From contig CBDCTK010000002.1 in the NCBI GenBank assembly GCA_965222225.1, forward strand, positions 3,328,001-3,392,000: a stretch of DNA of 64,000 bases, in the 5' to 3' direction. The notes beneath the pieces were generated by a model, which saw only the letters and a list, made by a program, of their open reading frames with translations, was not told the DNA's origin and did no database searches. The translations under genes and the position numbers were made by a program. Positions 15,944 through 63,477 of this stretch are shown one piece after another; positions within the stretch are counted from its first letter, which is position 1; the number at the start of each line of letters is the position of its first letter. This DNA comes from Candidatus Poribacteria bacterium (GTDB lineage Bacteria > Poribacteria > WGA-4E > JAJDTR01).

Positions 15944-16450
15944 TCAAGCGTGTCTACGTAATTGCCGAATGTCATCCTCGCAAATAAATTCAATTGTTAC
16001 GCCATTTCGACAAAATGCGTCGCGGAGTTGCCACCACTGTTTATCCATGGCTTGGAGGATGGGCGGCTTTTCGGCATGGGCACGGGCAACTGCGATAAAT
16101 TTCCGGTCGTCGGGATCGAATTTTTGCAATTCTGGGTCGTCAGGGAATTCTATGAACTCAGTTTGTGAATTTTCAATAGGCGTAATCGGAACCAATTCGC
16201 ACTGCTCCGTGTTTGTCCGATTTCGTAGGCTCCACACGAAAAACCTATCACCGGCGCCCGGTTTTCCACTTTCACTGAGATTTCTTGAATACTCGCCGAG
16301 AATTATCCAATCCGCGTCAAGAATCAATTTCATCTCGCCCTGCATAATCCGTTCTAGCCAGTTAATGCAGGATTCTTCACACTCCTTAAAGTCTTTTCCC
16401 CATTCGCCGTTGGCGAGCCTTGCTACGTTTGTATCTACAATTACCATCAT
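15944..16450 (-). CDS. PIN-like domain protein associated with an AAA ATPase
   Basis: VIVDTNV N-terminus and DPDDRKFIAVA motif. Start overlaps the ATPase stop. Confidence 0.7.
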   Translation of the reverse strand: MMVIVDTNVARLANGEWGKDFKECEESCINWLERIMQGEMKLILDADWIILGEYSRNLSESGKPGAGDRFFVWSLRNRTNTEQCELVPITPIENSQTEFIEFPDDPELQKFDPDDRKFIAVARAHAEKPPILQAMDKQWWQLRDAFCRNGVTIEFICEDDIRQLRRHA

Positions 16451-17721: not shown

Positions 17722-17743
17722 GGCTCTTGTCTCCTTCTCGTAG

Positions 17744-17770
17744 AACGTTAGTATCGACAATCACCGTCAT
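17744..17770 (-). pseudogene. N-terminal stub of a deleted PIN gene
   Basis: Reads MTVIVDTNV just after the ATPase A stop, matching MVIVDTNV of the intact PIN gene. Confidence 0.65.
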
Positions 17771-17772
17771 TA

Positions 17773-19035: not shown

Positions 19036-19065
19036 AGCCTATACCTCCTTTCCGTCCGTCTAAAT

Positions 19066-20109: not shown

Positions 20110-20319
20110 TAAATTATACCATTTTTCTAAAATTCAAGTACATTGATTACGTGGAACAAGTAACGAAACTTGCAAGGAGCGGAATAAGAAGCATTGTGTC
20201 CGCACAAAAGCGGCGGGGCAAGGGGTCTCTATTGATCAACCGACCAAATAGGGAAGGCAATAGGTAAATTTACTCGTTATTCACTCGTTTGTGCCCGCTG
20301 GCGCTCTCAAAGGCTGGTA

Positions 20320-20354
20320 AGAGTTCTATCGCACTCCCTAGGCAGTCGCTTGAT
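20320..20354 (-). repeat. 35-nt GA-hairpin element inserted in a REP
   Basis: AAAGGCTGGT-A-[unit]-CGCAGTGCGCACCCTACA, compared with the intact REP at 41-69. Confidence 0.85.
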
Positions 20355-20398
20355 CGCAGTGCGCACCCTACAACTACACTAAATTATACCTTCTGTGG

Positions 20399-22156
20399 CT
20401 ACCCGTCTGAAACTAATTCTAACACGTCCCTCAGCAAGCCCTCGTTTTGACCCTCAAGCGCCCGCATCTCATCGGCGATCTCTTGGGGTGACCGCAGCGG
20501 CGTGTGACGATAGAAATAGCGATTGAAGTTGATTTCGTAGCCCACCTTGTCCTTCTTCCGATCCATCCAACCGTCCGGCAGGTGGGGTTTAATCTCTCGC
20601 CGGAAGTAGTCGCCGATGTCCTCCGCGAAGGGGATGCGCTCGTCCTCTCGCAGCGCGGTGTCCGGTTTCGGAACCCCCTTCTTGTCCTTTACGACCAACT
20701 CGTTTTGCTCGCCGGGGGCATCGCGCTTTTCGACCAGCGGTCTTTCGATAATCACCTTGGTGTAGCCGAAGAACTCGTTCGGATAGATCTTGGAGTGCTC
20801 GCATTCCTCGAAGTTCGTGTAGATGTGCACCAGCCGCTCAATGTGCAACTCGGAGATGAAAACGCTTTTGTTGCCGAGATTTCGTTTCATCGACTCGAAG
20901 AAACCGGCGCCGTTTATTAGTTGGATCTTGCCCCGCCGCCGATCCAGTTTGCGGTTCGTCAGGATCCAGATGTAGGTGGAGATGCTGGTGTTGAAGAAGA
21001 GTTTGTCGGGCAACGCGATGATGCACTCCAGCCAGTCGTTTTCGATAATCCAGCGTCGGATGTTACTCTCGCCGCTGCCGGCGTCGCCGGTGAACATCGG
21101 CGAGCCGTTCAGGACGATTCCTACACGGCTGCCGCGACTCTCCATCTTGGAGAGCATGTGCTGCAGGAATAGCAGCGCTCCGTCGGAACTGCGGGGCGTG
21201 CCGGCTGTGAACCTGCCGCCGGTAGTGCCCGCCTCCGCTTTCACGGCGGATTCATCGGACTTCCAACTGACGCCGAACGGTGGATTGGTTATCATGTAGT
21301 CGAAGCGTTTCCCTTGAAACTGGTCGTCGGAGAGGCAGGAGCCGAGTTGGACCGCGTCGGGGTTTTCGCCGGTTATCAGCATGTCCGATTTGCAGATGGC
21401 GTAGGTCTGCGGGTTGAGTTCCTGTCCTAACAGCCGGATATCGGCGTCCGGATTGATCTGCTCGCGAAAGTATTCCTTGCCAATCGTCAACATGCCGCCG
21501 GTGCCGCAGCAGGGATCGAAGATGCTGCGGATAACCCCCTGTCCGCGCGCCTCCTCGCTGTGTTCGGCGAATAGCAGGGAGACCAATAGCCGCACGACAT
21601 CCCGCGGCGTGTAGTGTTCCCCACTGGTCTCATTAGACATTTCCGAGAATCGGCGCAGCAACTCCTCAAACACCTGTCCCATGGTGTGGTTGTCCACCTG
21701 ATTCGGGTGCAGATCGACCTCCGTGAACTTGTCGCAGAAGATGAACAGTCGATTGTTCCTGTCCAGTCGGTCGATAAACTGATCGAGGTTGAAGTTTTCG
21801 ATGATGTCCCGGACATCCTTGCTGAAGCCGTTGAGGTAGTTGTTGAAGTTGAGACGGATGTTGTTGGGGTCGGCTTTCAGCCGGGAGAGGTCGTATCGGG
21901 AGGTGTTGTAGAAACTGGAATCCGTCTCTTTCAGAATTATCTGCGGCAGGGATTCTTCGGGGACGACATCTTTGAAGCGGCTGTAGGTTTCAATGGATTT
22001 GTCTTTTCGGTCGTCTTCCGTCAAGATGCAGTCCAATCGGCGCAGCACGAGAAAGGGGAGGGTGATGTCGCCGTATTCGTGGGGTTTGAATAAGCCTCGG
22101 AGGACATCGTCGGCTACGTTCCAAACGAGGTTTGAGAGTTCTTGGTAGTTTGCCAT
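20399..22156 (-). CDS. hsdM: Type I restriction enzyme M subunit (N6-adenine methyltransferase)
   Basis: GEHYTPRDVV, FDPCCGTGGML and NPPF motifs. Confidence 0.96.
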   Translation of the reverse strand: MANYQELSNLVWNVADDVLRGLFKPHEYGDITLPFLVLRRLDCILTEDDRKDKSIETYSRFKDVVPEESLPQIILKETDSSFYNTSRYDLSRLKADPNNIRLNFNNYLNGFSKDVRDIIENFNLDQFIDRLDRNNRLFIFCDKFTEVDLHPNQVDNHTMGQVFEELLRRFSEMSNETSGEHYTPRDVVRLLVSLLFAEHSEEARGQGVIRSIFDPCCGTGGMLTIGKEYFREQINPDADIRLLGQELNPQTYAICKSDMLITGENPDAVQLGSCLSDDQFQGKRFDYMITNPPFGVSWKSDESAVKAEAGTTGGRFTAGTPRSSDGALLFLQHMLSKMESRGSRVGIVLNGSPMFTGDAGSGESNIRRWIIENDWLECIIALPDKLFFNTSISTYIWILTNRKLDRRRGKIQLINGAGFFESMKRNLGNKSVFISELHIERLVHIYTNFEECEHSKIYPNEFFGYTKVIIERPLVEKRDAPGEQNELVVKDKKGVPKPDTALREDERIPFAEDIGDYFRREIKPHLPDGWMDRKKDKVGYEINFNRYFYRHTPLRSPQEIADEMRALEGQNEGLLRDVLELVSDG

Positions 22157-22447
22157 GGTGGTTTATTAGGGAATCGGGGATTTGATAACCAGTGAGAAAT
22201 CTCTGTAGCATAGCTGTAGGGAACGCAGATCCGCGTTGCCTACATTAACCCTGTAGAGGATTCCATCTTCGGCAAAATATGAGAATCAATGTGCTGCGAA
22301 TGGATATGATTATGGTCGCTATACGCCAGGCGGTTTGCCACGGATTTCTATTGTAGCATGGGGACATTGGGGATGTCTATAGTGAGTTGGAAGATAGGGG
22401 AGTGGGGTGAGGAGTTCGGAGGAATGGTAGGCGGGGGAACTGTATTG

Positions 22448-22626
22448 GGATCTACTATCAGGACTTTCTATCGCCTTAGGTTCTCTATCGCGCATGCTAT
22501 TCAGGATCCCTATCGCGCAGGGATCTCTATCAGGATTTTCTATCGCCTTCGCTATTCACTCAGTTGATCGCTCCTTTTTCAGTCGCTTGATCTATTCGCT
22601 TCCTTGATCGTTCAGTTGATCCTACA
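22448..22626 (-). repeat. Deeply nested stack of 35-nt GA-hairpin elements
   Basis: Five left halves, one full unit (22533-22568), three right halves, then CCTACA. Confidence 0.85.
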
Positions 22627-25729: not shown

Positions 25730-25893
25730 GATGGGTACCGTGCACTATAGCATCTCCATGAACCCACGAATCCTAGGTGTGTTAGGTCTTAGGCAGTCGA
25801 ACACTCAAAGATGCTTAGTCAGGCGATTCTGTAGGGAATAACGAGGATCTCTATCGCGCTCGTTATTCCCTACAAGAGCCGCGTAACATAAAA

Positions 25894-25956: not shown

Positions 25957-26167
25957 CTAACGCGCTCCAATCTTCCTTCGCTTCCGGCTCAGTGGGATTG
26001 ATGTATTTTATCGGCGTACTACGCAGCGGATATCGGTCTTTTTCACGCCGTTTTGAAACACATTGCAAAATAATGACTTCAACCAATTCCCCTACCTGAA
26101 TCGGCAAATCCTCTAATGTTACCCTTCGATCTTGGCTGATAACAGTTTCAACGCGGTGTGCATTCAT
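25943..26167 (-). CDS. Small antitoxin-like protein
   Basis: 74 aa with a VTLEDLPIQVGELVEVIIL motif and acidic EDW tail. Confidence 0.6.
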   Translation of the reverse strand: MNAHRVETVISQDRRVTLEDLPIQVGELVEVIILQCVSKRREKDRYPLRSTPIKYINPTEPEAKEDWSALDDCV

Positions 26168-26383
26168 TCGAGACGTACTCCCAAATCCAGCTACAGTTCC
26201 TAACCCTACACCAGTTTCTATTTTTGCACATCGATCAGTGTGCTAACTGCAAACAAAAAACTCAATGAAATCCCTCGTGCGGTGCTATTATTGCGTGAAT
26301 AGCGGTTTATGTTTGGATAGGCCTTCGACAGGAATCCCGTTGGTTCGAGGTAAACAACGCTCCGTAGACGGTCGTTACTAAAG

Positions 26384-27448
26384 GTGCATGTATGTGTTAG
26401 CTTTATCTGTGAGTGTTGTTTCACGCTGTCAAGAGGAGATTGCAAGCTGTTCAATTCGAAAAAGACTAGGAGTTTTCTGTTTAGTTCACTCTTCTTAGCT
26501 TTCGTTGTACCCTCCGTTGTTGCACAAACTGATGCTTCGGCGCCTTCCACTGCTGTCTGCTTAATTGGCGACCATTTGGGCATCCCGGAAGCCGACGCAC
26601 ACACCGTGGCAATGCTGGTGTGTGATGAGCTGCGCAAGCAAGGTATATCAATTGGCGAGCCTGTTTACGAGGCGCCGACCTCAGCGAATGTCTATCGCGT
26701 TGTTTTACGACGTCTAGGCGAGAAGGTTTTTGTGCGCTTGAGTCAGGAAAACCCCGTCGGATCAATTCTTATTGTACGCCAAATCCTCTTGGCGAATATC
26801 GAAGAAATGGTCTCAGCCGCACCGAGGCTGGTTGATGCGCTTGTCGGCAGAAAGTCAATCGCTTGCACGGTAGGCATGGAGAATGTTACCGAACAGGAGG
26901 CGCGCGTGATTCGGAAGATAGCGGGTGAGTCTCTTTGGCATATGGGAATCCTCGGAGCCTTCATCCCCGGCACTGATATAGCAGCCGAACCCGGTTATGA
27001 ATTCGGTTGGTCTTATGAGACGCCAGCCTATGCTGTGGGGACCGAGTTTCGAGGCAGAGGACACGACGAATATGGGGACGACGGCAACCGTTTCTCATTC
27101 CACTCTTGGTCGATCGGCGGACGTTACTTCTTCAACAAACAGAATATGTCGCCCTATGCGGGCGGCGGCATCTCCATAGTCGGTGCAAGCTATGAAACGA
27201 AAGGAACGCAAAGAAAGGAGGATAGGATCAGTGACGAGTGGGAGCTGTACGACGATCACGATTCAGAAGAAAAAAGTGGTCTGGGCGCCTACGGTGTCGT
27301 GGGAATAGAGATTCTGCGCCTCGCCCAGAGTCGCTTGAAACTCGAATTGCGAGTGGATAGACCATTCTTTAAGTTGCCATCCCGAGACATGATGCCGGTA
27401 ACCGTGGGTATTTCTCTCTATATTCCCGGCAGTTTCTGCCTGTTCTAA
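26384..27448 (+). CDS. Exported protein with a C-terminal outer-membrane beta-barrel (start uncertain)
   Basis: Hydrophobic signal region and GGRYFF..SPYAGGGIS barrel-type strands. Confidence 0.6.
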   Translation: MHVCVSFICECCFTLSRGDCKLFNSKKTRSFLFSSLFLAFVVPSVVAQTDASAPSTAVCLIGDHLGIPEADAHTVAMLVCDELRKQGISIGEPVYEAPTSANVYRVVLRRLGEKVFVRLSQENPVGSILIVRQILLANIEEMVSAAPRLVDALVGRKSIACTVGMENVTEQEARVIRKIAGESLWHMGILGAFIPGTDIAAEPGYEFGWSYETPAYAVGTEFRGRGHDEYGDDGNRFSFHSWSIGGRYFFNKQNMSPYAGGGISIVGASYETKGTQRKEDRISDEWELYDDHDSEEKSGLGAYGVVGIEILRLAQSRLKLELRVDRPFFKLPSRDMMPVTVGISLYIPGSFCLF

Positions 27449-27734
27449 TTTCAAAGATTGTCCTGTTTTGCACTCCAGCGGAGTGCCATGTTTGTAGTAA
27501 AGGACATCTCCTATTTCCTCGCTCCAGCAGAGCGGCATGACTCTTAGAAATAGAACTATTGATGATAGAACTGACCGGTAGAAATACCGTGCAACCAAAT
27601 GACGCAATCCTCAATCATAAAATGCCTGGCCTCCCTTCTAATCTTTTCAGTTGCACATCCGGCACGGATATTTTGAACTCGTTTTATCGGGATTAAGATC
27701 GTGCGTTTATTTTCGATTATTCTGAAAAAAATAC

Positions 27735-27763
27735 TTGACAATGCTCCACACGCGATTTATAAT
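27735..27763 (+). promoter_or_regulatory. Consensus sigma70 promoter of the iron-uptake cluster
   Basis: TTGACA-17 bp-TATAAT. Confidence 0.85.
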
Positions 27764-27792
27764 AGCCGAAATTTGTTTATAGGTTAATGTTA

Positions 27793-27811
27793 ATTGCGAA
27801 TGAGTCTCAGT
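27793..27811 (+). promoter_or_regulatory. Fur-like 19-bp operator, site 1
   Basis: ATTGCGAATGAGTCTCAGT, 18/19 identical to the reverse complement of 43861-43879. Confidence 0.65.
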
Positions 27812-27879
27812 AGCAATTTGGAATGCCTCACATCAATCGTATCTCTTGGATGAGTGTGTCCATTTTTACGGTACTCGTT

Positions 27880-27898
27880 ATTGAGGTTGAGTCTCATT
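27880..27898 (+). promoter_or_regulatory. Fur-like 19-bp operator, site 2
   Basis: ATTGAGGTTGAGTCTCATT just upstream of the porin start. Confidence 0.6.
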
Positions 27899-27923
27899 GT
27901 CAATAATTTTGAAGTGGATATAA

Positions 27924-29126
27924 TTGCGAACCTTTTCATGTGCTGTTTTTCTTCTCTTAGTAGTTCAAATAATACCTGCTAATGCTTCACGCTTCCAAGT
28001 GTCGGGCTACGGCGCCATCAATTACGCCAACTTCAATTGGGATACTGATCCGGAACGACGTGCCCGCATTGATGTGGAGCGATTTGTCATCTCGCCCAAG
28101 TACAAGGTCAGCGATAACATACGGCTTGAAGCCGAGCTAGAGATCGAGCACGGCGGCACCGGCATCACCATGGAGTTCGACAGATTCGAGGAGTTCGGCG
28201 AGTTCGAAATGGAGGTTGAAAAGGGGGGAGAGGTCATCGTCGAGAAACTCGCCGCTGTATTTGAGATCGAGCCTAAAATCAACGTTCGGATTGGACATAT
28301 CATCGTGCCCGTTGGGCTTGTCTCCAAGAGGCATCGCCCCCAACACTACTTCACCGCCGCCCGCCCCGAGTCCGAATCCGACCTGATTCCAACCATTTGG
28401 CATGAGAACGGGATTGAACTGTTTGGCGAGATTGGCGCGTTGCATTACCAAGCCCAAGTCGTCAACGGCTTGGATTCAACCGGTTTCAGCTCGCGCCGTT
28501 GGATTGTCGGCGGACACCAATTGCGATTTGAAACCGCTAACGCCGAGGATTTTGCACTTGTCGGTCGAGTCGATTACACCATCACCCGGGGAGCGGTTCT
28601 GGGCGTCTCCGGCTACTATGGCGATAGTGCGGACAACCGCCCCAAACCGGACCTGCGGGTTGACGCGAATGTCGGCATCTTTGACCTGCACGGCTTCTAC
28701 GAGGTGGGCGCGTTGAAAGTCCGCGGATTATTTCTTTACGGCACGCTCCAAAATTCGGATCTCGTCTCCAAAGCCAATCGCAACCTCTCAAATAACCTGA
28801 ACGTAAAACGGACTCCTGTCGGCAGCAAAGCCGGCGGCGGATACCTTGAGGTCGGCTACAACCTGCTCTCGTTCTTCAAATCATCATTGAATACTGACAT
28901 CGTCCTAGACCTCTTCGTCCGCTACGATAACTACGATACCATGGCTGCCGTTGAGGGAGAGATTTTTGATAACCCGCGTTGGGAACGTCAAACCTGGACA
29001 TTCGGTGCCAACTATCATCCGCATCCACAACTGGTTTTCAAGGGACACTTCTCCGCGCGCCGATTGGGAACGGAAGTTGACAACAAGGAAGACACGTTGG
29101 CAATCGGCTTCGGATTTCAGTATTAA
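27924..29126 (+). CDS. Outer-membrane porin of the iron-uptake cluster
   Basis: Signal peptide, ELEIEHGG, E.GGEV.VE, IPTIWHENGI motifs and C-terminal GFGFQY. Confidence 0.78.
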   Translation: MRTFSCAVFLLLVVQIIPANASRFQVSGYGAINYANFNWDTDPERRARIDVERFVISPKYKVSDNIRLEAELEIEHGGTGITMEFDRFEEFGEFEMEVEKGGEVIVEKLAAVFEIEPKINVRIGHIIVPVGLVSKRHRPQHYFTAARPESESDLIPTIWHENGIELFGEIGALHYQAQVVNGLDSTGFSSRRWIVGGHQLRFETANAEDFALVGRVDYTITRGAVLGVSGYYGDSADNRPKPDLRVDANVGIFDLHGFYEVGALKVRGLFLYGTLQNSDLVSKANRNLSNNLNVKRTPVGSKAGGGYLEVGYNLLSFFKSSLNTDIVLDLFVRYDNYDTMAAVEGEIFDNPRWERQTWTFGANYHPHPQLVFKGHFSARRLGTEVDNKEDTLAIGFGFQY

Positions 29127-29152
29127 CTTCAAATCAGAAAAAGAGGAATCCA

Positions 29153-30244
29153 ATGAGATTCAACCTGTACGTTTCACGAATCTTTATTTTCACCCTGTCA
29201 ATCCTTCTAGTCACATCGTTATTCTTGGTCGCTTGTAGTGACGACGACGACGATGGAGACCACGCCCAATTTGACGCAGCCACAACGCTCAATGACTTCG
29301 CCAACACCGTTGTACTTGCCACCTACACCGATCTGGACAACAAAGCGGGCGACCTTCTGACCGCCGCGAGAGCGTTGAATTCAAGCAAAACTCAAGCAAA
29401 TTTGGAACGGGCGCGGACAGCCTGGAAGGCAGCGCGACGACCGTGGGAACAGAGTGAAGCCTTCCTATTCGGTCCCGTTGACACGCAAGGGCTTGACCCG
29501 GCGCTCGATAGTTGGCCCGTCAATCGTGTGGATCTCGACGCGGTGCTCGCTAGCGGCGATGTATTAACCGCGTCATCAATTGACAGTCTTGAAGACACGC
29601 TGAAGGGTTTCCACACCATTGAGTACCTCCTCTTCCGCGACGGTAACCAGCGGAAAGCCGCGGACATCACTCCCCGCGAACTGGACTACCTCGTCGCAAC
29701 AACAGAAAATCTGAAAGCGAAAACCGCTCAGTTACGCCTCGCTTGGGATTCGACCGGAGAGAATTTCGCCGCCGAAGTCGCGAACGCGGGAACTTCTAGC
29801 ACCATTTATAAGTCGCAAAAATCCGCGATGCAAGAGATGGTCAATGGAATGATAGCTATCGCGGACGAGGTGGCTAACGGTAAAATCTCGGACCCGTTCA
29901 ATGAGCGCGATACAACGCTTGTCGAGTCGCAGTTTAGCTTCAATTCCATCACCGACTTCCAAGACAATATCCGCGGCATTCAGAATGTCTATCTGGGCAA
30001 ATTCACCGCGGATGGTCAGGGGTTGAATACCTTCATTGCCGGTACGGATGCCGCACTCGACTCCAGATTCCAGACGGAAGTGCAGGCCGCGATTGACGCG
30101 ATTGGTGCTATTCCAGACCCGTTCCGCGACTCAATCACGGCAAATCGCGTAGCAGTCCAAACAGCCATTGAAGCGGTCAGTACCGTTCAACAAACGCTTG
30201 AGCAGGACATCTTAAAGTTGGTGTTAGACAGTAATTTCAATTGA
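29153..30244 (+). CDS. Imelysin-family (peptidase M75 / IrpA-like) lipoprotein
   Basis: Lipobox LVAC, WEQSEAFLFGP, LDSWP, GFHTIEYLLF (GxHxxE) and ESQFS motifs. Confidence 0.9.
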   Translation: MRFNLYVSRIFIFTLSILLVTSLFLVACSDDDDDGDHAQFDAATTLNDFANTVVLATYTDLDNKAGDLLTAARALNSSKTQANLERARTAWKAARRPWEQSEAFLFGPVDTQGLDPALDSWPVNRVDLDAVLASGDVLTASSIDSLEDTLKGFHTIEYLLFRDGNQRKAADITPRELDYLVATTENLKAKTAQLRLAWDSTGENFAAEVANAGTSSTIYKSQKSAMQEMVNGMIAIADEVANGKISDPFNERDTTLVESQFSFNSITDFQDNIRGIQNVYLGKFTADGQGLNTFIAGTDAALDSRFQTEVQAAIDAIGAIPDPFRDSITANRVAVQTAIEAVSTVQQTLEQDILKLVLDSNFN

Positions 30245-43677: not shown

Positions 43678-43760
43678 AGCGTCGTCGTTCTGTTGCACGG
43701 CTTCCTGTACTCGTTGATGTTAACATTTGATGAATCCCAACTGTTAACCTGTAGGCTGGG

Positions 43761-43796
43761 ATCAAGCGAACGGATAGTGAGAGCGATAGAGATTCC
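43761..43796 (+). repeat. 36-nt GA-hairpin element inserted in a GTAGG.TGGG..GAAACCCAAC REP
   Basis: ATCAAGCGAACGGATAGTGAGAGCGATAGAGATTCC, flanked by GTAGGCTGGG and AGAACGCAGTGAAACCCAAC. Confidence 0.85.
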
Positions 43797-52347: not shown

Positions 52348-52499
52348 TTTCCTTTTACTGTTGACATACTCATTGGGTATTTCTGACAATGCCCTTTGAG
52401 TTTACAAATCTCGTAGTTTCCCGAAAAGTCAAGGGACTGAAACTGAAAGTGTAACACACAATACATTTCTACAAATAAGAACCGGCACAATCCTGTAGG

Positions 52500-52715
52500 A
52501 TCAAAGGAGCGAATAGCGACTGCGATAGGGATCCCAGCGCGATCGATGATCGTCAAATCGTCGATTTCCCCTCTTACTGCGCACCAGCCTTTGAAAGCGT
52601 CGGCACGGGATCAAACGAGTGAATAACGATCGACTGAGTGATGAACGAAGGATCAAGGGAATGGATAATGACCGCGATAGAGTTCCCATAGAAGATCCCG
52701 TGCGATAGAGATTTC
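52500..52715 (+). repeat. 35-nt GA-hairpin elements including a triple nest
   Basis: Full units at 52500-52534 and 52652-52686, the latter inside two split outer copies spanning 52610-52715. Confidence 0.87.
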
Positions 52716-52785
52716 ACGGGTAATAGTAAGTCAAATGCCCAAAAATGGCGCTACTATCTATTTTTCAAACAGGTTCTAAAGTCAT

Positions 52786-55700
52786 TCAACATGTCTGAAA
52801 CTGACAGAGATTTACTTCCCTCCACGTTACAAGGTGTTGCTTCAGGCTTCTTTTCAACCACTTGCGTTCGTACATTGTCACATGGTTTGCCGCGGCGTGC
52901 TGACGTGTTTGCTTGGCAAACTCGCGATTCGTGATAATAATCGGCTGAAAGATGGCGTTGTATCTTTCCTCATAAAACGACTTTGCCGCTAGAATCTCAT
53001 CCACAGCTTCATTTCCCGGTTTGCCCCCTTCTTTACGTTGTTTGACCTGTATTAGCAATCCGCTGGTTCCCTCTTGGCTATGGTAGGCAATGACATCTGC
53101 CCCTTTGTCACCGGAAAAGGGTGTTAATTCAACACGATATCCTTGGGCTTGAAAAAGGGTAGCAACGAAGGCCTCAAAGAATGCTGGATCGAGTGCGTCA
53201 GCATCTTCTATCGTCAGCGGTGGTCCATCTTGTGGTTGGGATCGCGTTCGTCGTAGTTCATCCAGAATCTCTGTGCGAGTAACTTCGGCTTGTTCAGTGG
53301 GAAACAGCGTGCCCTGCGAAAGCTGGCGTTTTCGTTCAAGAAGTTCGTGCAGAACCACATCAAACGTCGGAAACTTGGGATGCGTTGCCATTGGCAGGTA
53401 AATATGCACGGGGCGCGTTTGCCCTATTCGGTAGACTCGATCACTCGCCTGATCTTCTTTGGCGGGATTCCACCAACGGCTATAGTGAATGACATGGTTC
53501 GCTTCCGTGATATTGAGCCCAACGCCAGCGGCGAGCGGGGACATGATGATAGCGTTGAAACCCGGTATGGCTTGAAAACGATTAACAGCTTGTTGCCGAC
53601 TCATCTTCATCGAATTTCCCCGTTGTGCGCTACCGGGCGTGTCACCATTCACGATAGAGATGTTCGCCAATCCGAAACGTCCTTGAATGACACGCTTCAA
53701 TAGATGCTGTGTTTTTCGACGTTCCGCAAACAGAATCACCTTTTCTCCATCATCAGCAATCTTTTTGAGAAGCTTTACTGTCACGAGCAGTTTTGCCGAT
53801 TGTTCAATCAAGTCTGGTGTAGGAACTTCCTCCCATTCAGAATCGGCCAACAGTGGATGGTCGGATATGTCTCGCAACTGGTGAAGAACCCTCAAGATAC
53901 TGTTCGGAGATTCCGGGCCCGTTGATTCGCTCTCGTGTACGGATTGAAGCGTAGCCACATAGCGGTCTGCCTGATTCAAAGGCATCTCTAATTGGCACTC
54001 TTGAACATGGATGTGTTTTTCGGGGAGATCTTTTAGAATGTCGGTTTTCAGTCGTCTCTTGAAGTGAACCCCGATGCGCTCTCGAATCTGATCCCCAAGT
54101 GCGCGAATGTTGGTATCAGGATGCTTAAGCGGGCGGCAGAAGTCTCGATCGAAGTTTTTCGCGCTGTCAAGATATCCCGGCGCTACAAAATCCGTAATAC
54201 ACCACAAATCCATTAGCGAATTTTCAACGGGCGTTCCCGTCAACGCAAGCCGAAAATCGGTTTTAAGCGCTTTCACGGCATTGGTGACCAATGCCCCCGG
54301 TGTCTTGATCCGCTGCGCCTCATCAATCACAACAGCAGCCCAGGGAATCAACCCCAAGTCTAACTGAAAGTCGCGAACGGTCTCATACGTGGTGAGTACC
54401 AGCTTGGCAGTTCGCAGGCGGTCTACATCAAGTGCCCCGCGGCGGCGGCGAAGTTCCGAGATTCGTTCCGCGCCTTCAAGTTCAGGAATCTCGTGGTTGA
54501 TTTCGCGCTTGAAGGCTTGCAGTTTCTTTCCGTACAACGTGATGAAATCTAATGAGCCTCCGTCAAAAAACTTTGGATACTCTGCTTGCCAATTTTATAG
54601 GAGCGCAATGGGAGCAACTATCAGGTGCGGCCGTTGCAAGTGATATTTAGCGTGGTGCCACTCCAGAAAACAGAGCACTTGCAGCGTTTTGCCGAGTCCC
54701 ATGTCATCGGCGAGCAAACCGCCGGGGTATTTCTCCTCCCAAAGTTGCTGTGCCCATGCAATCCCCTCCTCTTGATGCGGCAGGAGTTCTACTTCCTGTT
54801 TTAAATTCGGCGAAGGTTCTAGTAGATGACGAAACGGTTCTTTGACCGGTGGATCGGGTGTTGGTTGGACGTAACCGGGATCCTCAATATTTTCCTCGAT
54901 AATCAAGACCGGGGGCTCCAGCTTTTCATCCGGGCACGGTGGTTTCTTTCGGCGTTTGAGTTGCTTTTCGATGAATGGAAGATATCGCTCAACCTCGGAA
55001 ACGGGGAGTTGCCCATCTTTCCACGTCACCATTTTTTTGCCGGTCCTGTTTGCCCGATCAATCAAACCTTTCAGTTCGTCTAGTTCTCGCTGATCTTTGA
55101 CTGGTATCTTCGTGCGCTTTCCATCCTTGTCTTCAACGATAATGCCGGGAATCCATTCACTTTTGTAGGGCGAAATGAACGGATAAACCTTTGGTTGGTA
55201 GACTCCGATCGCACGGACGCGATGACTGAAAGAAAGGGGCTCATCTGTAGTTGGATCCAGTTCAACAATATCCGGATTGAAGTATGCTTGTGGCTGTTTG
55301 GCAATCTCGTCCAGTTCCTCACGGGAGACGCGACGAAAACGCTTAACGGAATCTAGTGCCTCTCGCTGCTCTTTCCGGAAGAGCACACGGGTTCGCGCAC
55401 CTTCAGGTTGGGAGATGTTGTATACGGCCTCAGGGTTCGGAAACTTGTCAAAAACCTCTTCAAACTTCGCGCCGTCAACTCCATCTACGTCAGGGATAAT
55501 CTCAATTCCATCTCCCGCCTCACGCAGACGCAAGCGAACGGTTCTCGGCGCGACAACATTCTCCTGATTCAGATAACAATCGAGTGCAGCCCCAGTCTGT
55601 GTCGCCAATCCTTTTATCGTTGCAAACTTGAGTAGATTCGCTTCGAAAATTTTGTCGTGCGCTTCCTGTTTATTGAAGGCATCTAATTCCTCTAATAGTG

Positions 55701-56154
55701 AGAATTGTTCGCCTGTCAGGAGATATGCCCACTCTGCTGTCAAACGCAACACGCAGCCGATCCGTTCTGGATGCAAGGGTTTTCGATCCGGTTGTAGAAA
55801 CTGATAATTGTAACGAAACTCCGGCTCATTGAGTGTCCCGCGTGAACCAATCTCAAGGTCAAATGGATACGGCTCCGGCAAACCGAGCAAACTCTGTTCA
55901 ACGAAGTCGAGACGACACACTTCCTCACACGGCATGAGAATCTCCGTGTCTGAGGATTCTGCTTGACCATTATCGAGCAGTTCCTTAAGCAACACCCATT
56001 GTGCCTGAGCATGATAGGCATTCGCTGGCAGGTTCTGGGCGTGTTTGGTCACTGAAAGACTATCCAACGGAGCGGTAAACCGAATGCCTGTTGGAATTTC
56101 CTGCCAGTTGAATTGTGGCGGCTCAGATTTGCTCTTTCCAAACAGGTTTAACAT
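52786..56154 (-). pseudogene. zorD: Zorya ZorD (SNF2 helicase plus Mrr-like nuclease) with an in-frame stop
   Basis: GGLLADDMGLGKT, DEAQRIK, LTGTPVEN, WWNPAKEDQASDRVYRIGQ and C-terminal GDKGADV..IQVK. TAA at 54597-54595 interrupts APIALL*NW in frame. Confidence 0.88.
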
Positions 56155-56159
56155 AGCAA

Positions 56160-57554
56160 TTACCCTTCCAACCAATAACCTCGCACTGGATCAATTCCAA
56201 GTTCATCCGTGATCCACGATTCAAATTTTTCCTGCCAATCGTAGCCCTCTGATTTTCTGTGAATTACACGATCTCTAGCGAAATACATGTTACGTAACTC
56301 CGCCATGTTATACGCCAAATTACCCAAATCAAACGGACGCTCCGCGTTATCATAGACATAGCAAGCTCCCGCGGTGCTGAACTCAACAAAAGTATGGTCG
56401 CCCATCTGAATGATGAAGGCGTGTTGATCAGGATTCCCACCCGTCAACTTCGCGGGTCGTCGTTCCTCATAATATTTTAGGGCTTGTGGGTTGTTCCTGA
56501 TGAGGTTCTGTACATTGCCGCGCAGCACCGGCCGACAAAATGAAATTCGTTCAAGATACGCCAACCAAAAGGCTTTTCGGTAAGCAAATTTCCGGTCATT
56601 GCAGGCTTTCGCAACGACATCAAAGAAAAACCGAAGGTCTTCTTTTGTGATCCATCCCGTAAAAATTCGTCTCGCTTCATCGGAAACGCCACGCCAATTT
56701 GCAACGTTTCCCGTAATTCTCGGGTCTTTCCATTTTCCGAGAACGTAGGATTGAACTGGTTGCCGAAAATCATCGAAAGCGTCAATGCCAAGTCTTTCAA
56801 TAGTTCTCGACACGATAGCACGGCTTGCGTTGTCGTCTCCATGCACCTTAACAAATTCGATGATGTCTGCAACAGTCTCCCGATCAAGGCGATGGTTGCT
56901 CTCGAAGAGTTCTTCGACATACGCCATTCCAACGATACCGAAGTAACAATAGTCGTGCATTTGAGTGGGCAACTTAAGATGCGACCAAATATCCGATAAG
57001 TTCACCCCGTCCCGTAACAAACTCATTGCTAGCTGATTAGCTCCGCTCTCTTCACAATACCACGCTAAATTGGCTTTGAGGTTCTGAAAAAACTTCTGGC
57101 GTCCTTCGTAATTTGCGAGGTGTCTTCTGACAAACGCGCGCAACAACCCCGCTCCCCACGCATCCCATGCTCGCAGCAGGGCATTAAAAACGCCGTGCAA
57201 CTGGCGCATGCGGAACCGGTCTTCAATGAGTTGGAGCGCGTCGCGGAGCTCCGGTGTGTCCACAATCCGGTGAAGATTAACCTCGGAGTAGGTCAACGCC
57301 CACGCAAGCCGCCGGATGCGTCTAAGCGAGTCAAACTCGGTATCCAGCCTTCCAGTTCGGATGGCATTGAAGAAGAGGTGATAAATCTCACGCAAATCTT
57401 CCTTCGCGGGAATATTGCACATACTATTATGCTTCCTTTCTATTCCCTCCAAATCCGAAACTATCTTTGGTGGTATTGCAGTAGGCTTCGGCGCGCGACG
57501 AACGAACTCGTCCGCATCGAAATCGAATTGAAGCAATTCTCTGGCCGAATTCAT
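56160..57554 (-). CDS. zorC: Zorya ZorC (EH-signature domain)
   Basis: DPR...W, FF, R..FW..Y, FVEFS..GACY and H...WQ motifs. Lies between zorB and zorD. Confidence 0.85.
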   Translation of the reverse strand: MNSARELLQFDFDADEFVRRAPKPTAIPPKIVSDLEGIERKHNSMCNIPAKEDLREIYHLFFNAIRTGRLDTEFDSLRRIRRLAWALTYSEVNLHRIVDTPELRDALQLIEDRFRMRQLHGVFNALLRAWDAWGAGLLRAFVRRHLANYEGRQKFFQNLKANLAWYCEESGANQLAMSLLRDGVNLSDIWSHLKLPTQMHDYCYFGIVGMAYVEELFESNHRLDRETVADIIEFVKVHGDDNASRAIVSRTIERLGIDAFDDFRQPVQSYVLGKWKDPRITGNVANWRGVSDEARRIFTGWITKEDLRFFFDVVAKACNDRKFAYRKAFWLAYLERISFCRPVLRGNVQNLIRNNPQALKYYEERRPAKLTGGNPDQHAFIIQMGDHTFVEFSTAGACYVYDNAERPFDLGNLAYNMAELRNMYFARDRVIHRKSEGYDWQEKFESWITDELGIDPVRGYWLEG

Positions 57555-57576
57555 TTTACCTCCTGTGTACTCCTAT

Positions 57577-58299
57577 TCAAGGAGAACGTATTCCAGGTTC
57601 AATCTCCAATAATTTCTCCGCCGTCGGCGACACCATATCCCAATCCCGTAACCGAAACTGAAATTCGACGCGGCGGTTCTGGGCGCGCCCTTCTTCCGTA
57701 TCGTTAGGCGCAATCGGCTGGACGAAACTCCGCCCGTTTGCGGACAGTAATTTTTTCAAATCCTCCGCGTAACGAAACGCCCCAAACTCTTTTGCAAATA
57801 AATATGCGGCCACACTATTTGCGCGGCGAAGGCTCAGTCTGAGATTATACTCATACCCACCAACATTGTCCGTATGCCCCTCAATAATCACCTGTGCAAT
57901 ATGTTCCTTCACCAGGGGATCGGAGAGCAGAATCCCCACATATTGGGGAGTAAATTGTCGAAGGAACACCTTTCCCGTCTCCTTAAGTTCAGCTTTCCCG
58001 AAATCGAACAAAACGCCCTCAGTGATGCGGATTACCCCGGTGTCAGGGTCAACTTCAACATCAAAATCGGAAAGTTCTTGAAGTAATCGACTGATGAGTA
58101 GCTTTTTGATTCGTTCCCGGTCGTCAAGTAATTCTAATTCTCTTCGCTTTTCCTCCATCAGGTTTTCAAGCCGCAACATGACAAAAGAAAGCAGAAGCAC
58201 GAAAATCAGCAGTAACCCTGCCATCAAGTCACCCAACGATAGACTGAATGGGTTTTCGTCGGAAAGCGTCTTGGATTTCGGTGGTAATCTTCGCATCAC
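57577..58299 (-). CDS. zorB: Zorya ZorB (MotB/OmpA-like)
   Basis: SLGDLMAGLLLIFVL TM with conserved Asp, IEGHTD, NLRLSLRRA and NRRVEF motifs. Confidence 0.92.
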   Translation of the reverse strand: MMRRLPPKSKTLSDENPFSLSLGDLMAGLLLIFVLLLSFVMLRLENLMEEKRRELELLDDRERIKKLLISRLLQELSDFDVEVDPDTGVIRITEGVLFDFGKAELKETGKVFLRQFTPQYVGILLSDPLVKEHIAQVIIEGHTDNVGGYEYNLRLSLRRANSVAAYLFAKEFGAFRYAEDLKKLLSANGRSFVQPIAPNDTEEGRAQNRRVEFQFRLRDWDMVSPTAEKLLEIEPGIRSP

Positions 58300-60443
58300 C
58301 TATTGCCGGACATGGACGGTAGTCGATCAATCCGATCGTTCAACTCTTCAATATTATCACGTTGTTCTTGGATGCTTGCATCCAGTGACTGTACCGCACT
58401 GGCCAACTGAGTAGCTAACCGTGTGAGATAATCATTGATTGACTCACGGGTGGTTTCGGCGTACTCACTTAATCCTTTTTGAATCTCCGCGAATATATCC
58501 TTCAATTCATCCCGTATCTCAGGGAATTGTTCAAGGGTGTCATTAAGCATCCCGTTGAGTTGTCGAATTGTCTCACGATTCGCTGCGAGATAGTTCTTGT
58601 TTTCTTGATTAAACGCCTGGCTCGCTTGAGTCAACTGTTGACCCGCGGTTTCAAGGCGATTAGCGCCTAGCATCAACTGACTGGACAAAGTCTGGGTCGT
58701 CTCAATCATTTGGCTGACGCTTGTTACGGTTGTATTCATCTGTTCCAACATGTCGCGTCCTCTCGCGAGTGCTTCCTGCGAGTTAGCGATTTGAGCGTTG
58801 ATAGCTCTAATTTGATCGCCTTGTTGATTTAGTAGCGCGCTGACACTTTGCTCTCCTGCTTTAAGGATTGACTCAAGCCGTCCGGCTGATTGATCAACGA
58901 GTTGCCGCATTCGATCTGTTGACTCCGTAAAGGCTGCCGAAGTTTGCGAAGTGATGTTGCCGATAGCTTGCTGCTGCGTATCAAGGGTCGAAGTGAGTGC
59001 CTGTTGTAAGTCGGTAATTGCTGCTTCAAGCGTTTGGATGCTTTGATTAGAAACCGCCTCAATATCCGCCATCCGTCGATTCAACTGTTCGCCTGTCTGA
59101 TTTGCAGACGATTCCAATAACTCGCGCATCCGGGTTGTCATTGCCTCGGACTCTGTGGCATTTTGTGACGCAGTAGACGTGATTGATTCTTGCAATTGGG
59201 TAATTGTGCTTTGGAGCGCTTGAATACTCTGATTAGTTGCCTCTGACAGGCTGGACTGTTGTAGATCGACAGCGCTTTGAAATGCGTTGAGCATTCGGTC
59301 CATCAGGTTTTGTAATTGCCCAGTCTGTTCTTCGGATGTTGCGGACAATAATTGGCGACTGCCGTTAATCTGCTCCTGCACACCTGCCATCATGCTTGTC
59401 AACTGCTCGGGTAAAGTTGACAAACTTTCGCTTGCACTGCGGACAGTTTCCGCAAGCCCCTCCAATTGTGCAGTAGTTGACCCTGAGAGCGATTCATGGA
59501 ATTCTTCAACCAATCGTTGGATGGCATCTGTCGAAGATTCTTCCTTTTGTCGTTGCAATTCCTCTACAGCTTTGTTAAGGCTATCCAGACTCGGTGTCAA
59601 CTGTTCTGCCATCGCACTGCTGAAGGCTTCGGGGGCGTTGTGAAGTTCCTGAATGATTTCTTCGCGCCCCTGTGTCATCGCACTCTTAATCTCGTTTGCC
59701 AAATCTGTCGAGAATGATTTGAGCGCCGCTGTCTGTTGTGCGAGTTCGTCTTCTTGGCGAAACAAGATCGCTTCTTGTGTCGTCAGCGTGAACAACTTAT
59801 CGAGTGCGCGTTGTAGATTCGTGATGGCTTGACTTATCCGACCCATGCGCCGCTTTTCAAATAGATTGAACACAAGCGAAACAGACATTCCCCAAACGGA
59901 AGTCACAAATGCTGTTGATACACCCGATAGCAGCGTTTTGATAGCATCGCCAATTTCCTCAATCTCGGTAAAGTCAATCCCCGCAAAGGGTCTCAATCCC
60001 CAAACAAGCCCAACAAAGGTACCAAGAATTCCGAGTCCAACCAATAGGGCGGGCACGCTATTCCAAAACCTAAGGTTCAATTGTTGATCCAAGAGGCGGT
60101 CCTCGCCAAAGAAAAGTGATGAGTCGTCCGTTTTATATACAACTTCTGGGTCTTCACGAGGATGCTCAATTAGTGAATCCTCAAACTCCTGCCATGCTTC
60201 AGCGAGGTTATTGCGTTCAAAACTGATTTTCAAGTTGTGCTTAAATGATGGTTGAGCAGGTCTTTTGTATTTGTCCACCTCTTTGCTCAAGCTGTCAATT
60301 CGGCTCGCGCGACGAAAGGTTTTCCGCATTAAAATTATCGACAAGATTATAAAAGTCGAAAGGATTACAGAAATAAAACCGTCCATAATCTTATCGGTCT
60401 CGCCCCACCACCACGGGAGTAATAGATCAATAAATTCGCTCAT
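58296..60443 (-). CDS. zorA: Zorya ZorA (MotA-like head with a long coiled-coil tail)
   Basis: VPALLVGLGILGTFVGL and LLSGVSTAFVTSVWG motifs, then about 500 aa of helical tail. Confidence 0.92.
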   Translation of the reverse strand: MSEFIDLLLPWWWGETDKIMDGFISVILSTFIILSIILMRKTFRRASRIDSLSKEVDKYKRPAQPSFKHNLKISFERNNLAEAWQEFEDSLIEHPREDPEVVYKTDDSSLFFGEDRLLDQQLNLRFWNSVPALLVGLGILGTFVGLVWGLRPFAGIDFTEIEEIGDAIKTLLSGVSTAFVTSVWGMSVSLVFNLFEKRRMGRISQAITNLQRALDKLFTLTTQEAILFRQEDELAQQTAALKSFSTDLANEIKSAMTQGREEIIQELHNAPEAFSSAMAEQLTPSLDSLNKAVEELQRQKEESSTDAIQRLVEEFHESLSGSTTAQLEGLAETVRSASESLSTLPEQLTSMMAGVQEQINGSRQLLSATSEEQTGQLQNLMDRMLNAFQSAVDLQQSSLSEATNQSIQALQSTITQLQESITSTASQNATESEAMTTRMRELLESSANQTGEQLNRRMADIEAVSNQSIQTLEAAITDLQQALTSTLDTQQQAIGNITSQTSAAFTESTDRMRQLVDQSAGRLESILKAGEQSVSALLNQQGDQIRAINAQIANSQEALARGRDMLEQMNTTVTSVSQMIETTQTLSSQLMLGANRLETAGQQLTQASQAFNQENKNYLAANRETIRQLNGMLNDTLEQFPEIRDELKDIFAEIQKGLSEYAETTRESINDYLTRLATQLASAVQSLDASIQEQRDNIEELNDRIDRLPSMSGNR

Positions 60444-60477: not shown

Positions 60478-61842
60478 CTAAATCCGAGACTTCGCCTTGA
60501 GCTCAAGATACTTGTTCACCACTTCCATCGTCAACTGGTGCGCCGGAACATCAAGCGTGATGACGCCTCGACTCCGCAGAATCTCCAACATCGCCTGTTT
60601 CTCCTGCAGCAATCTCTCGGCAATTGCCCGTTGGTAGACTATTTTGGAACTCGTCGGCTTCTGTGTGGCGAGTGCGATGATGCCGGAGTCCGTCAACGTC
60701 ACACAGGCGATGAGGTGGTGTCTGGCGAGCGTCGTCACATAATGCGCCAGTCCTTCCGCCGCATCCCTGTCCAAGATATCCGTAAAAAGGATAACCAGCG
60801 CGCGTTTACGCTGCTTCGACGCCAAGAATTTGAAGGCGGTCTCGAAATCCGGCTCCACCGGATAAACCTGCAAGGCGTAGGTAGCTTCTAGCATGGCGAG
60901 GAATTGCTTTTTGCCCGGTTTGGGGTCTAGGTATCGGTGCACGGTGTCTGAAAAAGCGATTAAGCCCACCTTATCCCCTTTGAGTGTTGAAACGTAGCTT
61001 GTCATGAGGGTGGTGTTGATGGCGTAATCCAGTTTAATCATCGCTTGCCCTGAGTTCGACGCTGCATCCGGTGTGTCATCCTGTTCTTGCGCCTCTGTCA
61101 GAATCGGCGATGCCATCAGCCTGCCGGCGTCCAACATAATCACCACGTCCTGGCTGCGTTCTGTCTCAAACTCCCGGACAATCGGTTTTCGGTGTCTCGA
61201 AGTCGCCTTCCAATCGACGCGGCGGATGTCATCATCGGGTGTGTAATCACGCAGCCGCTCGAATTCCGTCCCCTCGCCAAATTGCCGTGAGTTTTTCAAT
61301 CCAAGTTGACCCAGCATCCCGCGTCTCACCAGCAATTCGTACTGTCGAATGGCGTGCAGGTTGGGATAAACCTTCACCTCTGCTGCCGCCTTGACCCGAC
61401 GTTGGCGGATAATCAGCCCCAAAATCCCCCAACACTGTACGTGGATGTCCCCAAAATGGTAAATGCCGCGGCGCGATGGCGTGAGTCGATAGACGACGTT
61501 TTCACCTTCGCCCGCATCCGCATAAATTTCGTGAATTACACGGTCAAACCGAAACGTCGGAGGAAAATCATCCTTCAGTCGCAACCGTAAACCATGGCGA
61601 GAACGGTTGATAACGCGCAGCGTCACGACGTTTTCCGCACCCAACGAGAACTTGGAGTTCATCAGGCGGGTAACCTCAACCCTTGTGAATAGCGGGGTTT
61701 TCACGTAATCGACGAGGCAAACGACCAACAGCAGCGTCAGATAGACGGCATCGACTACCAACAAATTGGGCGAAACCGAGTAAAGCATAATCGGAATCGC
61801 TGACGGCAACAGGAAGCCGAGAAGCCGTTTACTAAATCGCAT
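60478..61842 (-). CDS. DUF58 / VWA-like protein
   Basis: VKVYPN, GTEFERLRDYTPDDDIRRVDWKATSR and MLDAGRLM motifs. Confidence 0.92.
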   Translation of the reverse strand: MRFSKRLLGFLLPSAIPIMLYSVSPNLLVVDAVYLTLLLVVCLVDYVKTPLFTRVEVTRLMNSKFSLGAENVVTLRVINRSRHGLRLRLKDDFPPTFRFDRVIHEIYADAGEGENVVYRLTPSRRGIYHFGDIHVQCWGILGLIIRQRRVKAAAEVKVYPNLHAIRQYELLVRRGMLGQLGLKNSRQFGEGTEFERLRDYTPDDDIRRVDWKATSRHRKPIVREFETERSQDVVIMLDAGRLMASPILTEAQEQDDTPDAASNSGQAMIKLDYAINTTLMTSYVSTLKGDKVGLIAFSDTVHRYLDPKPGKKQFLAMLEATYALQVYPVEPDFETAFKFLASKQRKRALVILFTDILDRDAAEGLAHYVTTLARHHLIACVTLTDSGIIALATQKPTSSKIVYQRAIAERLLQEKQAMLEILRSRGVITLDVPAHQLTMEVVNKYLELKAKSRI

Positions 61843-62845: not shown

Positions 62846-62968
62846 AGTCCTCCTATTCTGAAACCGAGTTTTTCCTTGAAAACTCGGTTTCTTTTTCGCG
62901 CAACCGAGTTGGATGAGCAAACATCAACTCGTTGATTTCCCCTCTTCTCATTGCACATCCGGCGTGGG

Positions 62969-63313
62969 ATCAAAGGAACGAATAGATCAACCGAGCGAAT
63001 AGCGAGGACGATAGAGATCCCACTGCGATAGAGATCCCTAAAGCCCCAATTTATCGGGATTGGCATTATGCTTTTTTAATCGGCGCACTCCCCACCTTCT
63101 CGGTCTGATTGACGAATCCAGACCATCAATTGAGCGAATAGCGAGTGATCAAGCGACCGGCAAGGAAGCGCGATAGAGCTCCGATAGAAAATCCCATGCG
63201 ATAGAGTTCCCATAGAGATCCTTTCCAGCCCGACCCTACGAGAGATCCCACTTAGCCAATCCTAATCCGCGTAATCCGATCAAGCGAGTGGTTAACGAGT
63301 GCGATAGAGATCC
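62969..63313 (+). repeat. Clusters of nested 35-nt GA-hairpin elements
   Basis: Full units at 62986-63020, 63148-63182 and 63279-63313, with flanking halves. Confidence 0.85.
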
Positions 63314-63477
63314 CGTAATCCGCGATTCAGACAATTACTAAAATTCGCAAGCCTAGACCTTATTCTTTTAGCGAATGAACCACTTAATGTTCCAGCAGAT
63401 ATTGCCAAGACTCATCGTTAGCATAGACGATTTAGTCCACGTACGTCATCCGCTACGGTGGGTACGGACAGCTTCCC

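Follow-up and report, generated by a model that had tools for sequence, protein, structure and literature searches.

Nested copies of a 37-nt intergenic repeat with a one-strand covarying hairpin and a recurrent G^CGA-like junction in Candidatus Poribacteria

The window analyzed here, a stretch of 64,000 nt from a Candidatus Poribacteria contig, contains 43 long open reading frames (ORFs) that cover 79.5% of its length. In its left part, two copies of an insertion sequence (positions 1555-2600 and 19065-20110) lie in direct orientation with about 16.5 kb between them; they are 100% identical over the 300 nt compared, and each encodes a 339-aa DDE transposase (PF01609/PF13546). The bracketed stretch carries type I restriction-modification genes (hsdR, 8895-11855; hsdS, 14534-15727), two AAA_15/DUF3696 ATPase genes and an IS1595-type transposase gene, while hsdM (20399-22156) lies just outside; the stretch is possibly a composite mobile unit. 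Positions 52786-60443 are occupied by a Zorya-like set of defence genes, which encodes a large membrane protein (58296-60443), an OmpA-domain protein (57577-58299), an EH_Signature protein (56160-57554) and a SNF2 helicase with an Mrr nuclease domain, which is split into two ORFs (54595-56175 and 52786-54537). The product of the gene at 60478-61842, a DUF58/VWA protein, was used to find 32 loci in species-representative genomes for comparison. Nine of them (L001-L009) are from Candidatus Poribacteria, with 81-98% protein identity, and the other 23 (L010-L032) are from Actinomycetota, with about 30% identity. At the matching place in L006, the SNF2/Mrr helicase is encoded by one long ORF (16347-19715).

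The spacers between the genes of the window contain many copies of a unit of about 37 nt. Its consensus, drawn from the regions named in the original prediction and from all similar places in the window, is (G)GATCAA-N1N1-GA-N2N2-GAATA-N3N3-GA-N4N4-GCGATAGAGATCC(C), with GATCAA as the constant left arm and GCGATAGAGATCC as the constant right arm. There are 16 full copies in the window, along with about 30 half copies. Seventeen segments of the window scored at least 17 against the consensus, a score reached by no segment in 20 first-order Markov resamplings, and 29 segments scored at least 12, against a resampled mean of 0.25. A simpler 12-nt pattern matched 50 times (19.4 expected), a number reached in 0 of 100 shuffles. 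The 16 full units are grouped into 11-14 clusters and none touches a long ORF, all 16 being intergenic. Alignment of 44 full units, the 16 of the window and 28 from the comparison loci, gave a unit length of 36-38 nt and 30 combinations of the variable dinucleotides, and neighbours within a stack differ. The sole inverted match between the unit ends is the 5-nt GGATC/GATCC; the longer terminal inverted repeats that characterize a MITE are absent, and target duplication was not seen in five filled/empty comparisons.

Full units occur at 2-8 per 21 kb in L001 and L003-L007, and L002 carries degenerate traces only. L008 and L009 (81% protein identity) and the 23 actinobacterial loci yielded none. 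A covariance-model search gave 48 matches at E ≤ 1, all in the window and L001-L007, most of them being the training sequences of the model. The region 52495-52730 had no blastn match in 72,556 plasmid or 50,697 phage records, and Rfam 15 gave 0 matches, whether the window was searched at the gathering score or 52400-52800 at E ≤ 1. We conclude that the repeat is real and restricted to this lineage.

The variable dinucleotides of the unit are paired, N1 with N4 and N2 with N3, and standard pairs were found in 94.2% of the cells of the 44-unit alignment. All four variable pairs vary on both sides, and the observed covariation score was reached in 0 of 500 shuffles; pairing falls to 20-41% once the partner is slid by 1-3 columns. 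The resulting fold, ab-GA-cd-GAATA-d'c'-GA-b'a', has a 2+2+2 stem with an invariant GA/GA block. The 172 pairing cells comprise 138 Watson-Crick pairs, 24 G.T, 2 A.C and 8 others. As G.T on this strand is A.C on the other, the 24 G.T against 2 A.C argue that pairing is selected on the GATCAA strand only, and this strand-specific pairing points to a single-stranded DNA or RNA stage. Nearest-neighbour folding of six sequences as DNA gave -1.6 to -2.9 kcal/mol (z -0.06 to 1.6), not better than shuffles. It is thus covariation, and covariation only, that argues for the hairpin, and a protein or non-canonical G.A pairs would probably be needed to form it.

Covariation with G.T tolerance is typical of RNA elements, and the units could be sites that serve the host, either as an RNA hairpin that stabilizes or terminates transcripts or as a protein binding site; selection would then keep the arrays, and nesting would be a by-product. 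The intergenic placement of the units and the position of several of them just downstream of genes in sense orientation (2936-2972, 8854-8889 and 20321-20355) agree with such a role. However, by hand reading some 3 of the 11 cluster regions run antisense to the genes on both sides, orthologous copies decay, such as the L002 copy of 63148-63182, whole spacers are replaced between close relatives, and Rfam offers no match even at E ≤ 1. We consider a host-serving role very unlikely.

The full and half copies were parsed by jumping alignment against the consensus, with half counts read by hand. The three-layer nest at 52608-52715 (+ strand) sits at a G^CGA-like site in a degenerate copy of a host repeat of about 230 nt. 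Its outer left half (52608-52629, +) covers consensus positions 0-21, with N1=AC, N2=GT and N3=AC. The degenerate middle left half (52630-52649, +; N1=CT, N4=AG) extends to position 23 and has the GA at 52628-29 in common with the outer half. The innermost full unit (52650-52687, +), of the GG/AT/AT/CC variety, gave a covariance-model match of 54.9 bits. It is followed by the middle right half (52688-52699, +; positions 27-37, ATAG...) and the outer right half (52700-52715, +; positions 22-37), in which N4=GT complements N1=AC of the outer left half.

Other units on the + strand are a single full unit at 52498-52535 with TGTAG directly before it, a single full unit at 43759-43796, and a two-layer nest at 62967-63038, composed of a left half (62967-62984, to position 17), a full unit (62985-63021) and a right half (63022-63038, from position 21) with AG/CT. 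The cluster at 63125-63221 (+) has one left half, a full unit with an odd loop and three right halves. A further single full unit (63278-63314, +) lies within tandem 9-mers, GCGTAATCC. Units were also seen inside short tandem repeats elsewhere: the same kind of 9-mers surrounds units both in the window (63255-63330) and in L002 (within 8400-8900), and TTACGTA-like repeats do so in L001 (17940-18060). The apparent flank duplication at these sites is the tandem repeat itself.

On the - strand, the nest at 5552-5623 consists of a left half (5604-5623), a full unit (5569-5603) and a right half (5552-5567) with AC/GT, and is adjoined by partnerless right halves at 5504-5551 (-). The cluster at 5337-5487 (-) includes a full unit (5451-5486) in hairpin 1 of the host repeat, left halves at 5405-5424, 5387-5401 and 5374-5384, and a second full unit (5337-5373), with no right half; the cluster at 6058-6133 (-) likewise has three left halves, one full unit and no right half. 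A second three-layer nest, at 8615-8725 (-), has left halves at 8704-8725 and 8678-8702, a full unit at 8642-8677 and two right halves in 8615-8641. Single full units occupy hairpin 1 of the host repeat at 2936-2972 (-) and 8854-8889 (-), and a left half and full unit lacking the right half lie at 12250-12308 (-). The composite at 20222-20355 (-) comprises a full unit in host-repeat hairpin 1 (20321-20355) and a left half (20274-20291); the composites 5405-5503 and 20274-20372 are paralogous, with 78% identity. The deepest cluster, at 22447-22622 (-), has three left halves, a full unit (22537-22568) and five right halves. A partial unit covering positions 10-36 (25845-25871, -) lies at the centre of a GTAG-tagged palindrome, and its left part appears to have been lost by deletion between two copies of a 9-nt word.

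The original prediction took these clusters to be copies of the element inserted into one another, with left halves on one side, one full unit in the middle and right halves on the other. This order was confirmed, as 35 of 36 half units are on the expected side (hand count). The outer halves of the nests at 52608-52715, 5552-5623 and 62967-63038 carry AC/GT, AC/GT and AG/CT as claimed, and the five left and three right halves reported for 22447-22622 are correct when that cluster is read on the + strand. Layers were then paired from the inside out, with classification and break points read by hand, and the outer halves were rejoined. All 21 matched layers fit, with 0-4 consensus positions lost and none doubled, which was matched in 0 of 100000 partner shuffles. 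Left halves that end by position 21 are always paired with right halves that begin by position 22 (7/7), whereas left halves that reach position 22 or beyond are paired with right halves that begin at 26 or later (14/14; Fisher p 9e-6). The order of the halves and their fit support the reading in which one unit is interrupted by another, whole unit, and each nest would have arisen by serial insertion.

Complementarity of the dinucleotides across the inserts, which had also been proposed, held for some layers and failed for others. Seven layers split the outer unit before N4 and are informative; three of these, the three nests just named, are fully complementary, and of the other four one shows a wobble and three a mismatch. 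Watson-Crick pairs occupy 9 of 14 positions across the seven layers (p 0.04 with N4 drawn from the pool of all units, 0.08 with N4 permuted among the seven), and the count of fully complementary layers gave p 0.08 (pool) and 0.16 (permuted), so that this signal is weakly significant at p of about 0.04-0.16 depending on the control.

The stacked halves belong to different sequence varieties, which excludes local slippage and favours insertion, as predicted. Growth of the arrays by replication slippage or tandem duplication of half units would also leave a tandem order, whereas the order is nested (35/36), the left halves within one stack differ in their variable dinucleotides, and the left and right break points are complementary. 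Slippage is contradicted as the main process, in which role it is most improbable. It is likely as a secondary process that adds or removes halves: the right halves are near-identical direct repeats of 11-14 nt that could expand or contract, and unmatched right-half runs are found at 5504-5551 and 63183-63221.

About 9 left and about 11 right halves are partnerless. The clusters 5337-5424 and 6058-6133 consist, apart from full units, of left halves only, broken at unusual positions, and some left-only stacks are broken at positions 8, 10 and 15-17. Deletions between direct repeats would be a natural source of such orphan halves, and the partial unit at 25845-25871 is a good example. The further suggestion that insertion is ongoing was not borne out, as no two full units of the window are identical. 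Inner units also do not appear younger, the mismatch at constant positions being 5.2% in inner full units against 3.6% and 4.1% in outer halves, a weak comparison, since the parser takes well-kept segments only.

The usual nest reads ...GA-NN, GATCAA...GATCCC, ATAGAGATCC, in which the complete inner unit replaces the GCG of the outer unit (positions 24-26). Among 29 left junctions counted by hand, 16 are at positions 23/24, 5 are right after the loop GAATA (position 17), 2 are after position 19 and 6 are elsewhere, some of these six with 1-4 filler bases. In the 44-unit set, 13 full units are directly followed by ATAG... and 20 are preceded by GA-NN. When N3 is GC, the sequence after the loop again reads GCGA. 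The idea that the element creates its own insertion site is thus upheld and sharpened to the outer GCG (16/29 junctions) and the position after the GAATA loop (5/29). The junctions lack target duplication, as had been stated, and this absence argues against DDE transposition, in agreement with the original prediction; the losses, by contrast, amount to 0-4 nt instead of the 0-8 nt given there, and most junctions are identical instead of ragged. Units within a cluster are co-oriented except for one case among the nests, an inverted inner unit in L004 (7402-7439). In L006 (9849-9921 and 19875-19947) and L007 (1032-1104), units also form head-to-tail dimers whose second member is missing its first 2-4 bases; the dimer junction GATCCAGCAAG is found twice in L006. 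They represent a second, non-nested mode of clustering.

Templated patching of breaks had been put forward as one possible source of the nests. In this reading the units are filler: when breaks at fragile hairpins are repaired, sequence is copied in from other units, and no dedicated enzyme is involved. Random breaks patched in this way would hardly give a stereotyped junction or complete inner units, and fixed ends and a fixed site argue against such patching: in most nests the inner unit has the same first and last base, and 16/29 junctions fall at one position. The strand-specific covariation, moreover, shows selection on the structure of the unit itself. The features that patching would account for are the location of insertion sites within or beside hairpins, the loss of a few nucleotides and occasional gain of single bases at junctions, and the stacks of truncated left halves with 1-4 nt fillers (5374-5424 and 6058-6133). 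Taken together, patching is quite unlikely.

The commonest host of the 37-nt units is the repeat of about 230 nt, which has terminal inverted repeats and contains three hairpins; one of these carries a GTAG tag (GGGTGCGCA/TGCGCACC), and the other two have the form GCCCC...GGGGC. Copies were located in the window (7-70, 8764-8830 and 52560-52780), L001 (6330-6560, without units), L003 (20540-20757), L004 (7708-7944, 9757-9858 and 11361-11608), L006 (19721-19876) and L007 (964-1195). Units in the host repeat occupy three fixed spots, namely the loop of hairpin 1 (GGGTGC^GCAC...) and, in hairpins 2 and 3, the 3' foot. The sequence at these two hairpins is GGGG-CG-A in the empty copy, and 4 of the 6 filled copies whose right flank was examined read GGGG-[unit]-A. 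The same junction is thus seen in nests and in the host repeat, so that a G^CGA-like site and the loss of CG are common to insertion into the element itself and into other sequences. The intact palindromes of the host repeat, rather than an outgroup, suggest that the polarity is insertion and not precise deletion. Origin of the unit as a fragment ligated into GATC sites was rejected, as the empty sites contain no GATC.

Other GTAG-tagged hairpin repeats, of the form GTAGGTGCGGTT...AACCGCACC or the palindrome TGTAGGGAATAACGA/TCGTTATTCCCTACA, were noted in L004 (7320-7510), L006 (8138-8429), L007 (8829-9004), L005 (within 8436-9003) and the window (25833-25880). The genus therefore has classical REP-like families besides the 37-nt unit, and GTAG-tagged hairpins act as targets for units in these genomes.

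Comparison of the related species revealed filled and empty versions of several sites. The nest at L004 11482-11553 corresponds to the empty L001 site GGGG CG ACAGG, the unit at L001 8346-8381 to an empty paralog, and the nest at L004 7380-7447 to the intact, empty loop of a GTAG-tagged hairpin in L007. In the spacer that separates the HAD hydrolase and MoxR genes, the entire nest 62967-63038 and the single unit 63278-63314 have no counterpart in L002. No target duplication was found in five filled/empty comparisons. For the cluster 63125-63221, the L002 ortholog has the same innermost unit with the odd loop and the same outermost halves but other middle layers, with two left halves and a single right one in L002 against one left and three right in the window. 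With the inner unit and the outermost halves in common and the middle layers differing, secondary deletions are required. In the L002 copy of the inner unit (63148-63182), the left arm and one base of the stem have been lost. The spacer 62921-63477 is unrelated in sequence to its counterpart in the closest relative (L005 8456-8983), with flanking genes 93-95% identical, and the length of the HAD hydrolase/MoxR spacer ranges from about 135 to 1300 nt in nine relatives. Nests identical in depth across relatives would have spoken against repeated insertion; instead, related species show empty sites or different layers. The elements turn over among related Poribacteria species.

Two nests of L004 (813-850 and 11505-11542) have identical inner units, nearly identical outer units and different flanks. 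Together with the paralogous composites 5405-5503 and 20274-20372, these common inner units indicate that some nests spread whole; such nests appear to have multiplied as wholes and not by new self-insertion. A broader reading is that the nests are real but mostly spread as one or a few ancestral composites, carried in the host repeat, as an outer unit with cargo, or by gene conversion via the arms. The L004 pair, the 78% identity of the paralogous composites and the identical tandem junction GATCCAGCAAG at two places in L006 are as this reading expects, and the stereotyped junction could reflect common descent. Yet four nests have the inner variety GT/CC/GG/AC, and their outer left halves are of three plainly distinct kinds (the two in L004 being nearly alike), the same junction (G, unit, A) is found at two host-repeat hairpins without any outer unit, and there are 30 varieties among 44 full units. 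We regard spread mostly as ancestral composites as unlikely, though less so than the patching of breaks.

The reading that we favour, and hold to be probable, is that the unit is a miniature element, mobilized in trans, whose target is G^CGA at hairpins, including the hairpin of the unit itself. It would be mobile DNA of about 37 nt, neither coding nor autonomous, that is present in a group of related Candidatus Poribacteria species. Insertion would involve whole units with fixed ends and no target duplication, at the short G^CGA site, with loss of CG or the whole GCG, and the target would be the 3' foot or the loop of hairpins. The unit would carry its own target 3' of its hairpin (positions 24-27), and also after the loop if N3 is GC. 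Because the unit carries its own target site, new copies would often land in old ones and build nests, which later would be eroded by deletions between direct repeats to leave partnerless halves. The moving intermediate may be single-stranded, and a trans-acting enzyme encoded elsewhere presumably moves the unit.

A Pfam scan for candidate enzymes covered 86 ORFs, of which 50 are in the window and 36 in non-syntenic parts of L001-L007 (159 long ORFs are listed for L001-L009). No HUH (Y1_Tnp) protein, reverse transcriptase or unit-adjacent recombinase was found among the 86, one phage-integrase-family gene (7622-8533) excepted, and the mobile-element genes in this set encode DDE transposases only (IS4/5-like and IS1595-like). 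HUH chemistry had been proposed as the route of insertion. Strand-specific pairing fits a single-stranded intermediate as in HUH Y1 systems, and in the window the units are all on the - strand left of about 26 kb and all on the + strand right of 43 kb. The sign of GC skew changes at about 26000-30000, with a cumulative skew peak near 26-28 kb that is independent of gene orientation, so the units lie on the C-rich strand on both sides of the change. As a general rule, however, a replication-strand bias was rejected, as the units of L004, L006 and L007 are mostly on the G-rich strand. With this bias contradicted in three loci, no Y1/HUH domain in the 86 ORFs, no GTAG tag on the unit, no inverted pairs and 2-3 target bases lost, HUH chemistry is rather doubtful. 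In its fullest form our proposal is tentative, a possibility that we place below even likelihood: an uncultured phylum may harbour, in this unit, a new class of mobile DNA that is ultra-small (37 nt) and is moved by a putative enzyme via a single-stranded intermediate, the enzyme reading the GA/GA hairpin and the constant arms and joining the unit at a G^CGA hairpin foot or loop.

Several known systems resemble the unit in part. Elements of the IS200/IS605 family and their miniature derivatives insert without target duplication next to a short specific target of 4-5 nt, depend on hairpins of one strand, keep the target intact and have a hairpin at each end. The unit likewise shows no target duplication and a one-strand hairpin, and a G^CGA-like site recurs at its junctions; it differs in losing 2-3 target nt on insertion, in having one central hairpin and in a replication-strand bias that is not reproduced across loci. 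The nested MITEs of plants and cyanobacteria, which exceed 100 bp and have terminal inverted repeats, target duplications and DDE transposases, resemble it in that elements lie inside copies of their own family.

By description, the closest known kind are the small dispersed repeats (SDR) of Nostocaceae. SDRs are 21-27 nt long; a hairpin with conserved flanks is common to some of their families, which are found in tandem heptamers as well as one within another. SDR1-8 of Nostocaceae were reportedly described by Elhai et al. in 2008. Like the Poribacteria unit, they are very small dispersed repeats thought to be mobile, but the unit is longer, at 37 nt against 21-27 nt. The passages on SDRs in two later papers (PMC4390886, PMC5861425) name no enzyme, and the first of these places the insertion of SDR5 exactly between nucleotides 3 and 4 of GCGATCGC, at GCG^AT. 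The right-hand junction of most Poribacteria nests is also GCG^AT(AG), but the Poribacteria unit loses GCG on its left side, whereas SDR5 keeps it. SDRs are described as found only in Nostocaceae in the relevant passage of PMC5861425, whereas the host here belongs to the Poribacteria.

REP and BIME sequences, too, are short intergenic hairpin repeats, often clustered, whose abundance varies between related genomes; they are presumed to move via single-stranded DNA, and REPs are also targets for other insertions. GTAG-tagged REPs were treated by Di Nocera et al. 2013 (PMC3733652), and REPs and RAYTs by Bertels and Rainey 2011 (PMC3116915); the passages of these papers that concern such repeats mention neither Poribacteria nor nesting. 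Unlike REPs, the unit has no conserved GTAG/GTGG tag, with GTA before GGATCAA at 3 of about 15 outer left ends (hand-read), and its weak 2+2+2 stem includes the GA/GA block. Its copies are co-oriented and nested, in contrast to the inverted pairs of REPINs, and no Y1_Tnp domain, as expected of a RAYT, was detected in the 86 ORFs of the window and parts of L001-L007. A literature search that included Poribacteria extragenic palindromes found no description of this element.

The spread of repeats only a few tens of bases long through bacterial genomes is an old question, and for REPs the role of RAYTs rests on limited biochemistry. The Poribacteria element offers a clean handle on this question, with fixed ends, a one-strand covarying hairpin and a recurrent short target. 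Because the nests preserve the sequence before insertion, in the form of the outer unit, the chemistry of the junction can be read directly. If our reading is true, the nests record the insertion history of the unit itself, and with both a structural requirement and a target defined from sequence, the movement of tiny non-coding repeats would become directly testable. The intergenic spacers of these sponge symbionts are remodelled quickly, which matters for the assembly and comparison of their genomes.
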